Positions 1 to 6,000 of a stretch of 64,000 nt of DNA are shown here, in pieces (position 1 is the stretch's first letter; every line of letters starts with the position of its first letter). The DNA is taken from assembly GCA_038204425.1 (NCBI GenBank), contig JBBRCZ010000006.1, positions 1-64,000 of the forward strand, read 5' to 3'. A program made the position numbers. This stretch comes from Spirochaetia bacterium (GTDB taxonomy: Bacteria > Spirochaetota > Spirochaetia > DSM-27196 > Salinispiraceae).

Positions 1-3000
1 GCTGATCGATCAAGCCCGTGTAAACATGCTGAAGGACTGGAAGCATTCTGGTTTTAGTATTGAGAGCGAAACCAGACTATTCAGCAAGGCGGATCGAGAA
101 GCCTTGGGTCAATATGTAGTTCGCGGCGCTACCTGTGCAGACAAAATATGAATGGGTTTAAAAGTGATGGCAGTTATTACTATGGTGGATTAATATTGTA
201 CGGAAGAGAGTGGGATGAAAATTTTAGTGACACAATTAAAAGGATAGAAAAGGGAATTATCAGATTTGAATATTCTGATGAAGTAAATCCAATAGCTATC
301 AATACAACAAGAGAAATAGTTGAAATCTGTAGAGAAAATGGAATAGAGTTGATAGCTTTTATACCACCATATGCTCCTTCAATATATGATATGATGGATT
401 TCACGGCAGTACTGAATTATACGAAAAAATTGCCAATGAAATAATCAGCAAGAAAACACAAGGAGATCAGACTGCGTCCAACAGCCAGTAAACTAAGTTT
501 TCCATTTATGAAAACTAAACTAAGTTTTCCATTATATAGTCCCGGCGTTGCGGTGTGTTCTTGCCCATATAAAACTCGAGCGTGCCAGTAATTTCTTTGA
601 TAGCCTTGATGTCTACCGGTACCAAACGAATATCGGGCCCAATAAACTGTCCAAATTCTTTGGGGCTGATTTCGCCCAAGCCTTTAAAGCGGGTCACTTC
701 TATGCTGCCAGTGGCCGACAATACGACACCTTCGGCCTCAATCGCCTTGGCAGCGCGCGCTCCACCCAGTTGCAATACGGCAGAGTCACGTTCCTTTTCA
801 CTATAACAATAAACGGTGTTTTGCTTGTTGCGCACTCTAAAAAGCGGCGTTTCCAGAATATAGAGGTGGCCGCGCACGACAAGTTCTTCAAAGTACGACA
901 AAAAAAACGTCAAAAGCAAGTTGCGAATATGAAAGCCGTCGTTGTCAGCATCGGTTGCCAACACGATGCGATTGTAACGCAGGCCTTCGAGTTCGTTTTC
1001 GATGCCCAGGGCCATCATCATATTGTAGAGTTCTTCGTTTTGGTAGATTTCGGCTCGCTTTCGCCTGTGCATATTTTGCGGTTTACCGCGCAAACTAAAT
1101 ATTGCTTGCGTATAGACATCCCGAGAGCTCACCATCGAGCCTGATGCCGACTGACCTTCGGTAATAAAGATAGTTGAGTTTTCTATTTGATCTAGTTCTT
1201 TGGTGGTTTTGCCTTGGTCACCAAGGTGCGACTTGCAGTCCTTGAGGTTGGGAATCTTGAGTGCAATTTTTTTGGCGGCCTCGCGGGCCTTATTTTTGAC
1301 AACAGCCAGTTCTTTGCGCAGGGCCTCGTTTTGCATGATCTTGTCTTGTACTTTGCGCGATTCCACCGGATTTTTGTGCAGCCAGTCATTGACTGCGTCG
1401 CGCACTTCGGCCACCACCCAGGTGCGGATTTCGGTGTTGCCCAATTTGTTTTTGGTTTGTGACTCAAAGATTGGATTTTCTAGTTTGACAGCCAAAGCTG
1501 CCGCAAAACCGTCTCGTACGTCTTGACCGCTAAAGTCCTTTTTAAAGAACTCGTTGACGCCCTTTAAGAAGCCCTCTCTAAAGGCCGAAAGGTGGGTGCC
1601 GCCGTCAGACGTGTGTTGACCGTTTACGAATGAAAAATAGTTCTCACCATAGTTTGCGGTGTGGGTAAAGGCAAGCTCCATCAGTTTGCCCTTGTAGTGT
1701 GCTATGTCGTAGATGATCTCATCGCCAACTTCGGCAGTCAAGAGATCAAACAAACCGCGTTCGCTAGAAAAGGCTACTCCGTTGAAGTACAAAGTCAATC
1801 CAGAGTTGAGATAAGCGTAGTGACGCAGACGCTCTTCGACAAATTCGGCCTTATAGTCGTAGTCACTAAATATTTTTGCATCCGGTGTAAAGCGCACGTA
1901 GGTGCCATCGGCTTGCTTGGCTTTGTTTACAGCGCCAGGTACTGCGGCCACCTCAGCTGCGCCTTTTGGTTGCTCGGCCTGTTTTTGCACTAGCAAGTTG
2001 CCGGATTCAAAAACGGCACTTGAATACTTGCTCTCTCTAAAACTGGTAACTTCAAACTTGCCAGACAAAGCGTTTACCGCCTTGGTTCCAACACCGTTGA
2101 GACCTACCGAAAACTGAAAAACTTCGGTATTGTACTTGGCACCGGTGTTGATGACAGAAACGCATTCAACAACCTTACCAAGTGGAATGCCGCGGCCATA
2201 GTCGCGGACGGTGATGGTTTTGCCGTCCAGTTGGATATCTATGCGCTTGCCAAAGCCCATAATGAACTCGTCCACCGCGTTATCGATTACTTCTTTAATA
2301 AGAATATAGATGCCGTCACTTGGATTGGAGCCATCGCCAAGGCGACCAATATACATGCCCGAGCGCAGACGGATATGCTCAAGGCTCGACAGAGTTTTGA
2401 TCTTGGACTCGTCATAGACGCCCGATGGACTGGCTGAGCTTACAGGAGCCTTGGATGCGCCAGCCTTTTTTGAAACTGGGTCGAGCGAAAATTCGCCTTG
2501 TACAGGAGTCTTTGCCATAAGCTTTACTATACCACGTCAGCACAAGCCAAGAAAACCCACCTTTGGGAACTGGCCCAAACCTTGACAGGCCTTGCCAGTA
2601 CGAGTAGTTTACTTGTCGCTATGGGGACGACCCACTATAGGATGGTAGCTCTTGTCGCGTCTCAACTTTAAACTCCAAGCCACCTCTTCGGGCAGCGCAG
2701 CGCGGGCTGCTTCTTTTACTGCACTTCATGGCGAAGTGCAGACGCCTATCTTTATGCCAGTGGGCACACAAGCGACAGTCAAAGGCCTGGATACTGCCAC
2801 GCTCGAACGAGTAGGTTCTCGCGTCCTACTGGCAAATACGTATCACCTCCTGCTCAGACCTGGCCCCGAGGTTTTTGAGGCGGCTGGTGGCATCAACAAG
2901 TTTATGGATTGGCCACGGCCTGTCTTGACTGACTCAGGCGGCTTTCAGATTTTTTCACTGCCGCGCTCACGCCAGATGAGCGAGGATGGTGCTGCGTTCA

Positions 3001-6000
3001 AAAGTTATGTCGATGGTAGAGCCTACTTGCTTTCTCCGGAATCAAGCATTGCTATGCAGCGTTCGATCGGCTCTGACATTATGATGGTACTCGACCAATG
3101 TATTCCGGCCAGCTCAAGCTACGAACAGGCCAAAGCCGCCATGGAGCTTACTCATCGTTGGGCAGGCCGTAGCTTAGTGGCCCGAGGTGATTCGCCACAA
3201 GCTATGTTTGGCATTGTTCAGGGAGCTTGCTATCCTGACTTACGCCGCCAAAGTGCTAAATTTCTGAGTCAGGCCGGCTTTGACGGTCTGGCAATAGGTG
3301 GTTTGGCTGTGGGCGAGAGTCGCGCCCAACGTCAGGACTTTACCGAACTGGTGGCTGCCATGCTGCCTGTTGACTTGCCACGCTATCTGATGGGTGTCGG
3401 TACTCCGCTCGATATTTTAGAAGCCGTCCATCGTGGTGTTGATATGTTTGACTGCATTATGCCCGTCGCCTTGGCTCAGCACGGTACGGCCTTTACCTCA
3501 CAAGGAAAGTTTCAGGTGCGACGTAGCGTCTATAAATTTGACCAAGGCAGCTTAGACCCAGAGTGCGCCTGTACAGCTTGCACCCGCCATTCGATTTCGT
3601 ACTTGCATCACTTGCAAAAGACAGGCGAAAATCTTGGCTGGCAATTGCTTGCTGAGCACAATTTGCAGTTCTACCATGGTTTAATGACCCAAATTCGCCA
3701 ACATATACTTGCCGGAAGCTTTGAATCTTTTTACAAGCTCAAACGTCAGCAGTTGGATAGCGATGACCAGGTGCATCCTGCCCAGCCAGGCAAGCAACGT
3801 AAGCCCAAGGCTCTACGTCAGAGTCAATTGGGAAACTATCAAGTCAATGTTTCGCCAGCTGGATTTTGTAGTATTCAACAGCGTAGCTCCGGCGAAATTA
3901 TGCATTCGGTTTCCGACCCAATGCTTGAGGCCCAGGCCTTATACGTTGATCAGATCCAACTTGGTGCGCGCCTCACTGAGCATCGACATAAGCCGCTGGT
4001 TATCTGGGATCTGGGCCTTGGCGCTGCCACCAACGCGATGGCTGCAATTAAGTGTGCACAAGACTGGCGAGCGCCTCTCAGGCTGATAAGCTTTGAAAAT
4101 GACCTCGACGCGCTTAGGTTGGCAGTCAACAATGCAGGTCGATTTTTGCACCTTCAACACCCTGCTTCTTCTCATTTGCTGCGCCATGGTCGCTGGACAA
4201 GCGACGATGGCCACATTGAATGGCTGCTCTTGGAAGGTGATGCCATGACGCGCATTGCTGATGCTGAATGTGCAGACGTCGTTTACTATGACCCTTTTTC
4301 TCCCAGCAGCGACACAAGCTTGTGGACAATTGACTGTTTTGCCAAGCTTAAAGCGCGCCTCAACCAGAATGGTCTTGTGCTAACTTACAGCAATTCTACA
4401 GCGGTCAGGGTGGCAATGCTTGCAGCTGGTTTTTTTGTCGCTGCCGGGATAGCTACGGGGCCAAAGGCAAACACCAGCATTGCATTTCTCAATCATGCTA
4501 GTCTGCCAGCGTCGGCGCAGATCTTGGGAAGCGCTTGGCTTGCAAGCTGGGAAAAGAGTCAAGCTAAACTGCCGTATGGCATCGCGTCAGAACAAGATGC
4601 TTGGCTTTTTGAGACCATACGGCGACACGCTCAGTGGCAGCTTTCCTAAGGCATTTCCTGCTTAGTTTACAATTATTTGACAAAGCTTTTACGTAACACA
4701 GGCTTTTCTGTCCATTAAGTGGGCTATGCTTAAGATCTAGCGACTGAGTTTTGAAGGAGAAGCCATCCCATGAAACGACCTATTAAATATAGCTTGCAAG
4801 CATTGCTTGTAGTGATGTCCCTGTTTGTCTTGACTTCGCAGAGTGTAGCAGAACATCGAGAGCGTACTCTCGTGCGCCGCGTCCCACCCATAATGACTGA
4901 CGAATCAGGTAATAGCGCTCGCCAATTGGATTTGGCGACATTTTTGCTAGATGTCAAGGTGATGGGCGTGCTGGCACGAACAACAATGACCATGACCTTC
5001 TACAATCCTGGATCGCGCGCGGTAGCAGGAAATCTTTATGTTCCATTGCCAGTTGATGCTACCATTTCTGGCTACGCATTGGACGTCAATGGCGTTATGG
5101 TTGACGGCGTTCCCGTTGAACGAGACACTGCTCGTCAAGTTTACCAAACCGTAGTGGCTCGCGGCATTGACCCTGGCTTGGTGGAGTGGACACGTGGCAA
5201 TGTGTTTAAAACACGGGTCTTCCCGGTTCCAGCAAAGGGTAGTCGTACGGTTAGTCTTAGTTACCTGAGCACTGTCGTCACTGCTGTCGCGACTAGCGAT
5301 AGTCCAGCCAAAAAGCCGCGTTTGATCATTCCATTTGACTTCAAAAAGCCGATAGCAGATTTTAAACTTAGTCTTGAGGTTGTCAAACCTATGGTCAAAC
5401 CCTTGGTTATTTCAGCTTCGTGGAACAAACTAGAGTTCCTTGCTTGGCGCGACGGATTTCGCAGCGAGTTTAGCGCCAAAAACTTTACACCCGATAGCGA
5501 TTGCGAAATCGAACTACCAACAGTCGACGAGCGAAGCGTGCTTTTGGAGAAGAACAATCAAGCAGAAGTAAACGGTGGCAAAGGGGCTTGGTTCTTGTGG
5601 ACCAGCCCACGTGCAGCTTTGGGTCAGTCGCTAGGCATATCGGCCCAACCTAGTCCAGCAAAAGAGCTTAGTCTGTATTGGGATGCGAGCCTAAGTCGCC
5701 AGAACGCTCGCCACGATCTAATAATCAAAACGCTAGCTATTTGGCTTGTAGAGCAAGCAAAAACGCCAGCCAGTTCAGTAGAAAAAGTGCACCTTACCGT
5801 TTTTCGCGAAAGCGCAGAAGCGACGCGTAGCTACCCGGTAAACAGGGGCCTATCGCCTGATCTGCTGCGCGATCTTGCTGCCCTTAGCTACGATGGTGGT
5901 ACCCGAAGTGGCTATTTGCCAAGTCCTCCGAAAGCAAGTCAGATGGTGATTCTGGTCTCTGATGGTTTTTACACTATTGGGCAAAAAGCATTTCCGGACT

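Follow-up and report, generated by a model that had tools for sequence, protein, structure and literature searches.

Why should a bacterium that already has a tRNA-guanine transglycosylase (Tgt) carry a second one, joined in a single chain to a methyltransferase, and what might the pair write into RNA? The gene that raises this question lies at positions 2652..4649 on the forward strand of the window, a 64,000-nucleotide stretch of the genome of a Spirochaetia bacterium. Its reading frame begins with TTG, ends with a stop codon at 4647-4649 and encodes 665 amino acids; the opposite strand is riddled with stops on translation, and the N-terminus LSRLNF fits the MSRLxF consensus of 36 aligned relatives. 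Pfam places a TGT domain at residues 16-367 (E 5.1e-139) and Methyltransf_30 at residues 517-607 (E 1.5e-14). Reading frame, Pfam, NCBIfam and structure matches agree with the survey's finding of a Tgt fused to an MnmC2-like SAM methyltransferase. A motif check recovered LTDSGGFQ, GGLAVGE, DMFDC, CACTAC and DPFSP, and the claim that the zinc and catalytic motifs of the fused Tgt are complete likewise holds.

The AF2 model of the whole protein reaches a mean pLDDT of 90.5 with a pTM of 0.60, and because of the latter no fixed geometry between the two halves is predicted. They are separated by a basic linker at residues 371-393 (3762..3830, forward strand) that is poorly conserved among relatives and in which pLDDT falls to 52-74.

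The transglycosylase half

The N-terminal half, hereafter Tgt2 (residues 1-370; 2652..3761, forward strand), is a complete bacterial Tgt by Pfam, NCBIfam, alignment and tree. It scores 437.7 bits against the NCBIfam Tgt equivalog (TIGR00430, cutoff 306.75), gives structure-sequence matches of ~350 bits to solved Tgt enzymes and is 44-56% identical to ordinary bacterial Tgts. Beside the survey's figure of 48.5% for Pseudomonas Tgt stand matches to ordinary Tgts at 44-51%. Three sets of residues are invariant in 37/37 aligned fusions, namely catalytic D94 and D267, the preQ1 pocket (D148, C150, Q190 and GGLAVGE at 216-222, including Val220) and the zinc site (C305, C307, C310 and H336). The catalytic pair corresponds to Asp102 and Asp280 of the Z. 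mobilis enzyme, and the pocket to its Asp156, Cys158, Gln203 and GGLAVGE. The zinc site is not strictly defining for bacterial Tgts, since the CxCxxC motif is missing from 7/37 ordinary ones. Invariance at all of these positions, together with a score above the equivalog cutoff, suggests that Tgt2 is an active preQ1-type transglycosylase and not a mere RNA-binding module. A reading in which one half has no catalytic role and acts for the other as a tRNA-binding or regulatory module has precedent in the non-catalytic accessory Tgt-like subunits of eukaryotes, and QTRT2 is among the structure matches; we nevertheless regard it as highly improbable, as all catalytic residues of both halves are invariant across 37 fusions, a sign that selection acts on both activities.

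Phylogenetic analysis sets Tgt2 apart from the housekeeping enzyme. The Tgt halves of all 24 fused or split forms make up one paralogue clade (SH-aLRT 99, stem 0.47), while the free Tgts in the same tree group by taxon outside it. The clade is also marked by the segment that follows the nucleophile (residues 269-278, IMPVALAQHG; 3456..3485, forward strand), which was delimited by alignment and structural context. Ordinary Tgts read V-x-P-T-R-x-A-R-N-G here, and Tgt2 lacks this conserved P-T-R-x-A-R-N-G segment of bacterial Tgts. The equivalents of Z. mobilis Val282, Arg286 and Arg289 are Ile269, Ala273 and Gln276. Both arginines are present in 37/37 ordinary Tgts, against 0/24 and 1/24, respectively, in the fused clade. 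These lost arginines lie beside the RNA-reading surface, so Tgt2 may read the anticodon loop differently from an ordinary Tgt.

The methyltransferase half

The C-terminal half (residues 394-665; 3831..4646, forward strand) is an MnmC2-fold SAM methyltransferase by HMM, alignment, tree and model. The model of this half has a pLDDT of 93.5, and its best Foldseek matches are 3VYW (E 2.8e-16, TM 0.72), 2QY6, 3PS9, 3AWI and 3SGL. Conserved in the alignment are SAM motif I, W452-D-x-G-x-G457 (D453, G455 and G457), the ribose residue E482, the candidate catalytic base D547 within D-P-F-S, and K605. The last three are the equivalents of Glu101, Asp178 and Lys236 of E. coli MnmC, of which Glu101 binds ribose, Asp178 is a candidate base and Lys236 has been equated with RNA binding (PMC3648344). 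Judged by homology and model, the half is probably equipped to methylate a -CH2-NH2 group carried by an RNA base.

It is nonetheless distinct from canonical MnmC2. Against the NCBIfam MnmC2 equivalog-domain (NF033855, cutoff 136) it scores 77.7 bits, compared with 160.9 bits for the genome's own free MnmC2. In the tree, 42 fused, split and stand-alone methyltransferases are separated from 14 canonical MnmC2 sequences by a branch with SH-aLRT 99 and a stem of 1.51, and the clade differs consistently at M417 (where canonical sequences have Tyr), P423, Y431, Q434, W524 and T608. It also carries a C-terminal extension of ~55 residues (610-665; 4479..4646, forward strand), predicted to form two helices and conserved at L625, W629, S636, P641, Q661 and an aromatic residue at 662; the alignment shows no counterpart to it in canonical MnmC2. 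The free MnmC2 that the survey reported does exist (contig C1, 239 amino acids, DGHKP). The contrast of DPFSP with DGHKP is a weak argument and not a diagnostic one, given that Aquifex MnmC2 has DAFSP.

Co-occurrence with queuosine and MnmC genes

Searches of this genome, which is 95.6% complete, found QueA, QueG and a YhhQ/Vut_1 precursor transporter, and QueF and QueC were looked for there and not found, matching the earlier inventory. A spirochaete-type Tgt with GGLSVGE and no zinc-site cysteines accompanies the fusion as described (contig C3, 374 amino acids). A free Tgt is present in 42/42 fusion genomes examined, from many phyla. Its gene has queA as a neighbour in 14 of these, and the fused gene does so in none (0/42). 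Across these 42 genomes, then, the fused Tgt is neither the sole copy nor linked to queA, as the Tgt of the queuosine pathway would be, and the fused and free enzymes are therefore not redundant. preQ1 is available to the fusion, as QueF scores above cutoff in 36/42 fusion genomes and a transporter can stand in for it, as in this one. QueA, present in 40/42, would compete with methylation for preQ1-tRNA. As this genome has only one gene per GUN tRNA, the two Tgts would share their substrates unless Tgt2 reads something else.

The methyltransferase half invites a different reading, in which two wobble-base enzymes have been joined without a shared substrate, a diverged but isofunctional MnmC2 that acts on nm5(s2)U34 of the Lys, Glu, Gln, Arg and Gly tRNAs and a second ordinary Tgt. 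The fused domain is the sole MnmC2 homologue in 29/42 fusion genomes, MnmG is found in 36/42, and fold, SAM motifs, catalytic Asp and RNA-binding Lys are all MnmC2-like. Stand-alone methyltransferases of the fusion type also exist (seven genes in five Bdellovibrionota or Oligoflexia genomes, 4/7 of them adjoining leuS), and hence this type can act without a tethered Tgt; the two tethered tRNA-modifying domains of E. coli MnmC can likewise act independently (PMC3648344). Lacking MnmC2, however, is normal. In a preprint survey, 520/968 MnmAGE-bearing genomes have neither MnmC1 nor MnmC2 (bioRxiv 10.1101/2023.12.21.572861), and 95/101 sampled genomes of the order of one fusion genome (G014) have no MnmC2 homologue, so that the fusion does not there replace a gene carried by relatives. 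Nor does the unshared-substrate reading explain a separate Tgt clade that is accompanied by a free Tgt in 42/42 genomes, the loss of two otherwise invariant arginines, a pair that stays together when split, or the canonical-type MnmC2 found beside the fusion in six genomes (G000, the present one, and G011, G025, G032, G040 and G034); the score of the domain, well under the equivalog cutoff, also speaks against it. We consider it somewhat unlikely. That free MnmC2 copies stand beside the fusion, which had been advanced as an argument for a separate role, carries little weight by itself, being the exception (6/42) when the fused domain is alone in 29/42.

Distribution and mobility

A search with residues 371-665 returned 1413 database proteins at E<=1e-3 among 5902 candidates, and among the matches listed 120/120 carry both TGT and Methyltransf_30. 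The fusion is thus widespread, as the survey had held; the survey's count was 2085 proteins. In Nannocystis exedens DSM 71 and a Myxococcales MAG (both Myxococcota), tgt2 and the methyltransferase are separate, overlapping genes. Absence from 60/60 sampled relatives and an atypical GC content, within the top 0.8% of windows, mark the fusion gene as patchily distributed and horizontally mobile. Nothing ties the fusion locus to preQ1 by way of a conserved queuosine neighbour, a riboswitch or a tRNA gene, and the neighbourhoods examined show no recurrent defence or phage genes.

Such mobility fits a reading with the same chemistry and another target or order, in which preQ1 is inserted and methylated at a site other than G34 of GUN tRNAs (in a different anticodon context, in a different RNA, or in DNA), or free preQ1 is methylated first and then inserted. 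The lost Arg286 and Arg289 equivalents and Ile in place of Val282 fit it too, bacterial Tgt accepts N-alkylated preQ1 analogues (PMC9561289), and the same base is made in DNA by the phage proteins DpdA and DpdM (PMC10516641). We think it unlikely all the same: unlike the distant DpdA, Tgt2 retains the identity to ordinary Tgts given above and exceeds the tRNA-Tgt cutoff, its preQ1 pocket is unchanged (Val220 and Cys150 included), the lysine linked to RNA binding in MnmC is retained by the methyltransferase, and the lack of recurrent phage or defence neighbours points the same way.

A proposed two-step RNA modification

The best reading, which we put forward tentatively and on sequence grounds, is that Tgt2 and its tethered methyltransferase write 7-(methylaminomethyl)-7-deazaguanosine into tRNA. 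The gene would then encode a self-contained, horizontally mobile enzyme that modifies an RNA base in two steps. In the first, for which the intact residues speak, Tgt2 would exchange an RNA guanine, most likely G34 of a tRNA, for preQ1. In the second, suggested by homology and chemistry, the MnmC2-family domain would use SAM to N-methylate the 7-aminomethyl group, yielding 7-(methylaminomethyl)-7-deazaguanosine. QueA converts preQ1-tRNA towards queuosine, and the flexible tether could allow methylation to outcompete it. Queuosine synthesis would thereby lose part of the preQ1-tRNA pool. Since the clade lacks both arginines next to the RNA-reading surface, the set of anticodon loops concerned may also differ. 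To our knowledge, this nucleoside has so far been known only from phage DNA. There, N-methylated preQ1 occurs naturally (PMC10516641).

The survey had proposed a dedicated preQ1 N-methylase. Its first element, a dedicated enzyme as opposed to a chance fusion of two housekeeping enzymes, gains strength from the separate Tgt and methyltransferase clades, from a fusion that is never the sole Tgt (a free one in 42/42) and never queA-linked, and from the persistence of the split pair; its second must still share the ground with a role in mnm5U synthesis.

Several observations count against preQ1 as the substrate. The fused domain being alone in 29/42 genomes, with MnmG in 36/42, means that it could be an nm5U methylase. 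To these are added the stand-alone methyltransferases, QueA in 40/42, the lack of preQ1-linked neighbours, the pTM of 0.60 and the single GUN tRNA genes.

Few wobble modifications have been studied as well as queuosine, whose bacterial pathway is regarded as complete. A second Tgt that is widespread and mobile and carries its own methyltransferase (1413 proteins) would add a branch to it. If the leading reading is true, the product would be a new natural RNA nucleoside, and RNA labelling could profit from a natural enzyme that places preQ1 in RNA and derivatises it there. Were the methyltransferase to act in mnm5U synthesis instead, the existence of a Tgt2 clade whose RNA-facing segment is altered would still call for an explanation.

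Comparison with known systems

The architecture has been recorded before. The 968-genome preprint survey lists a TGT/MnmC2 fusion (COG0343/PF01702 with MnmC2) among four 'other MnmC2 fusions', and the passages concerned propose no function for it and hold no paralogy analysis or co-occurrence data (bioRxiv 10.1101/2023.12.21.572861). New here are the paralogue clade, the constant free Tgt, the lost arginines, the separate methyltransferase clade, the split genes and the patchy, GC-atypical occurrence.

With bacterial Tgt (TIGR00430, EC 2.4.2.29; Z. mobilis 1OZM/1ENU, T. maritima 2ASH, E. coli 10FA), Tgt2 has in common the catalytic Asp pair, the preQ1 pocket and the zinc site; it differs in its separate clade, in never being the sole or queA-linked copy, in the loss of Arg286 and Arg289, in the change of Val282 to Ile and in its C-terminal methyltransferase. 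MnmC2 (Aquifex 3VYW; E. coli MnmC N-domain 2QY6/3PS9; NF033855) is the nm5s2U34 methyltransferase (EC 2.1.1.61), whose substrate is a primary aminomethyl group of a base at position 34. The fused half shares its fold, SAM motif I and the Glu101, Asp178 and Lys236 equivalents, and departs from it in scoring below the equivalog cutoff, in forming its own clade, in six fixed differences and in the ~55-residue extension. Bifunctional E. coli MnmC (MnmC2 with MnmC1) likewise places two wobble-modifying domains in one chain, with the same methyltransferase fold, but its partner domain is an FAD oxidase on the same nucleoside, whereas that of the fusion is a transglycosylase with a different base as its known product.

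To the phage system of DpdA and DpdM, whose product in DNA is 7-(methylamino)methyl-7-deazaguanine, the likeness is confined to the proposed two steps; as described there, DpdM is a DUF3109 metal-cluster protein (CxxxCxxCC) of unrelated fold that acts on DNA (PMC10516641). Pfam gives only TGT and Methyltransf_30 in the fusion, with no DUF3109, and its GGLAVGE loop is identical to that of the preQ1-type Z. mobilis enzyme, not the preQ0-type GGhsbb of DpdA, so that by loop and sequence the Tgt half is tRNA-type and not DpdA-type.

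The fusion gene and its surroundings

The Tgt2–methyltransferase fusion occupies window positions 2652-4649 (+ strand) as a 665-aa open frame with a TTG start, the reverse strand being closed, and its N terminus agrees in alignment with those of 36 full-length relatives. Pfam places TGT at residues 16-367 (E = 5.1e-139) and Methyltransf_30 at 517-607 (E = 1.5e-14). The N-terminal half scores 437.7 bits, above the 306.75-bit NCBIfam cutoff for the Tgt equivalog, while the C-terminal half, at 77.7 bits, falls below the 136-bit cutoff for the MnmC2 equivalog domain. An AF2-type model of the full-length protein contains two confident domains (pLDDT 90.5, pTM 0.60) and a low-confidence basic linker, and suggests a flexible tether between the halves instead of a fixed interface.

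Unrelated genes flank the fusion, namely a diverged GyrB/ParE-like gene, a gene for a VIT/TPR protein and a polyamine operon. The first (515-2518, − strand) encodes 667 aa, scores 416 bits against 740 for GyrB and 280-311 bits with the ParE models, far under every curated cutoff, and might be a divergent additional B subunit of a type IIA topoisomerase. Directly 3′ of the fusion lies a gene (4770-7847, +) whose 1025-aa product carries VIT, TPR and DUF2135 domains, and which was not observed next to the fusion in other genomes. It is followed at 7901-11777 (+) by consecutive genes for agmatine deiminase, an N-carbamoylputrescine amidase-like CN hydrolase and arginine decarboxylase.

No que or mnm gene adjoins the fusion among the 132 of 144 immediate neighbours classified with Pfam at 70-odd fusion loci. 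Recurrent neighbours reflect local synteny only (UvrA in five Opitutaceae loci, TrmO in three), and tRNA genes are linked to the fusion in 3 of 60 loci, with differing anticodons. Scanned with Rfam at gathering thresholds, 15 fusion loci yielded no preQ1 riboswitch and just one tRNA.

Queuosine and mnm genes of the Salinispiraceae genome

The genome under study (2.84 Mb, 95.6% complete) also encodes a free, 374-aa Tgt that lacks the zinc-site cysteines (contig C3, locus L001 1462-2586) and a free MnmC2 of 239 aa, above its cutoff at 160.9 bits. It has QueA, QueG and a YhhQ-type transporter; searches for QueF and QueC found neither, so the organism must salvage preQ1. On every point checked, the survey's description of the fusion, the free Tgt, the free MnmC2 and the que inventory held. 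The zinc-less free Tgt was dropped as a special feature: CxCxxC is also missing from 7 of the 37 ordinary Tgts sampled, among them those of Bacteroidota, a Pelagibacteraceae genome and two other carriers of the fusion, and zinc-less Tgts therefore recur.

The free MnmC2 directly adjoins a gene for a YhdJ-like adenine DNA methyltransferase (contig C1, locus L003 470-1435 and 1483-2202, both on the − strand), which scores 156.6 bits to PRK11524, under the 292-bit cutoff. This adjacency recalls the MnmC2–YhdJ fusions listed in a 2023 preprint (bioRxiv 10.1101/2023.12.21.572861).

The Tgt half is a separate paralogue

The fusion was located in public genomes of many phyla, and 42 carrier genomes were searched, including Verrucomicrobiota, Bdellovibrionota/Oligoflexia, Myxococcota, Binatia, Riflebacteria, Spirochaetia, Acidobacteriota and several Proteobacteria. 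The survey's finding had raised whether the fused Tgt might be the sole Tgt elsewhere. It is not: all 42 carriers have at least two TGT genes, a long fused or split copy and a free copy, usually the higher-scoring, in a frame of about 375-430 aa. Cultured carriers include Opitutaceae bacterium TAV5, as well as N. exedens DSM 71 with the split form. QueA, found in 40 of the 42, directly adjoins the free tgt in 14 and never the fused gene, and QueF passes its cutoff in 36. This makes the free Tgt the predicted queuosine enzyme of the carriers, to which the fused Tgt is extra. Two genes appear split across frames, the free tgt of carrier G029 (C8:1145338-1146409) and the MnmG gene of G002 (C2:1275423-1277249), which may be true pseudogenes or the result of frameshift errors in long-read assembly.

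Of the 61 Tgt domains placed in a tree, 24 were fused or split forms, 20 were free copies of these carriers and 17 were ordinary Tgts of other genomes; two rows missed by the frame filter are absent. All 24 fused or split forms fall on one side of a single branch (SH-aLRT 99, stem 0.47). Free copies cluster by taxon. The free Tgt of the Salinispiraceae genome groups with those of two Spirochaetia MAGs; its fused Tgt is nearest to Oligoflexia and Bdellovibrionota fusions.

The two halves are encoded by separate genes with overlapping stop and start codons in Nannocystis exedens DSM 71 and a Myxococcales MAG, and these split forms are basal in both the Tgt and the methyltransferase trees. At the N. 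exedens junction (locus L015, about 7100-7230), a stretch of about 60 bases is tandemly duplicated and ends in the stop/start overlap.

Alignment shows the catalytic, preQ1-pocket, zinc and dimer-interface residues of Tgt2 to be invariant in 37 of 37 fusions. Few positions set the fused clade apart from ordinary Tgts, the sharpest lying just after the nucleophile. Equivalents of Zymomonas mobilis Arg286 and Arg289 occur in 37/37 ordinary Tgts versus 0/24 and 1/24 in the fused clade, where the Val282 equivalent is Ile in 23 of 24. The insertion that starts at the Arg286/Arg289 segment serves sequence-specific reading of the anticodon loop. We take the two arginines themselves to contact RNA; the published accounts found give their location, not their contacts.

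A distinct methyltransferase clade

The methyltransferase half (METHYLTRANSFERASE) belongs to the MnmC2 fold. A profile built from 13 such C-domains hits Aquifex MnmC2 at 5e-24 and E. coli MnmC at about 1e-15, and its alignment equates E482 with Glu101 and D547 with Asp178 of the E. coli protein. The nine best structure matches to a model of this half (pLDDT 93.5) are MnmC2, followed by m4(2)C synthase and amine-alkylating spermidine synthases. The tree of 56 methyltransferase domains separates 42 fused, split and stand-alone rows from 14 canonical MnmC2 (SH-aLRT 99, stem 1.51). Differences fixed in the fused type relative to canonical MnmC2 are Met417 in place of a Tyr, together with Pro423, Tyr431 and Gln434, near the N-terminal active-site motif; the type also has Trp524 and a conserved C-terminal extension.

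Unexpectedly, the fused type also stands alone, in seven genes from five Bdellovibrionota/Oligoflexia carriers, with C-domain profile scores of 193-255 bits; the true MnmC2 of the Salinispiraceae genome scores only 19.7. Further stand-alone genes lie on long contigs. At four of the seven loci (L206, L207, L208 and L209) the gene is divergent and adjoins leuS, and at L211 its neighbour encodes an RlmF-like RNA methyltransferase.

Relation to canonical MnmC2 and origin

The fused domain is the sole MnmC2-family match in 29 of 42 carriers, and MnmG was found in 36 (the six without a match are MAGs, in four of which not all candidates were scored), so the fused domain could be the nm5U methylase there. 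Speaking against this, absence of MnmC2 is usual. Both MnmC domains are missing from 520 of 968 MnmAGE-containing genomes, according to the preprint (bioRxiv 10.1101/2023.12.21.572861), and for G014, one of the genomes examined, 79 of 121 sampled members of its phylum and 95 of 101 of its order have no MnmC2 homologue. The fusion is therefore no stand-in for a gene that relatives carry. Nor was it complementary to canonical MnmC2 in these phylum and order samples (n = 121 and 101), in which the fused type was assigned by frame length and score. Canonical MnmC2 moreover coexists with the fusion in six genomes, the Salinispiraceae genome included.

None of 60 sampled relatives of the latter has the fused type; nine have Methyltransf_30 matches of 96-120 bits, seven of which fall in frames the size of a free gene (237-343 aa) and the other two in frames of 382 and 650 aa. 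At 52.2% GC, the fusion gene lies within the top 0.8% of 2-kb windows; the genome mean is 46.2%. It was likely gained horizontally.

A proposed two-step module and published work

The fusion has the pattern of a two-step module, in which a dedicated transglycosylase paralogue is paired with a dedicated methyltransferase clade: both halves are predicted to be catalytically intact, they stay together even when split, and they are additional to the ordinary pathway. As the most economical chemistry we tentatively propose, at somewhat less than even likelihood, that Tgt2 would insert preQ1 and that the methyltransferase half would then N-methylate its aminomethyl group. Of the rival readings, continued action of the methyltransferase half on nm5U seems less likely to us, and a different target or order of steps somewhat less likely again.

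One published study of Tgt fusions considered transporter partners only. The accessible part of the preprint lists TGT among four ‘other’ MnmC2 fusion partners, with nothing further on TGT (bioRxiv 10.1101/2023.12.21.572861). Our literature search for methylated preQ1 in RNA, or for a study of the Tgt–MnmC2 fusion, returned nothing beyond this preprint and work on phage DNA. N-methyl-preQ1 is reported only from phage DNA, where it is made by DpdM (PMC10516641). Homology of the methyltransferase half to DpdM was rejected: the phage enzyme is a DUF3109 protein, unrelated to the Methyltransf_30 domain that the fusion joins to TGT.
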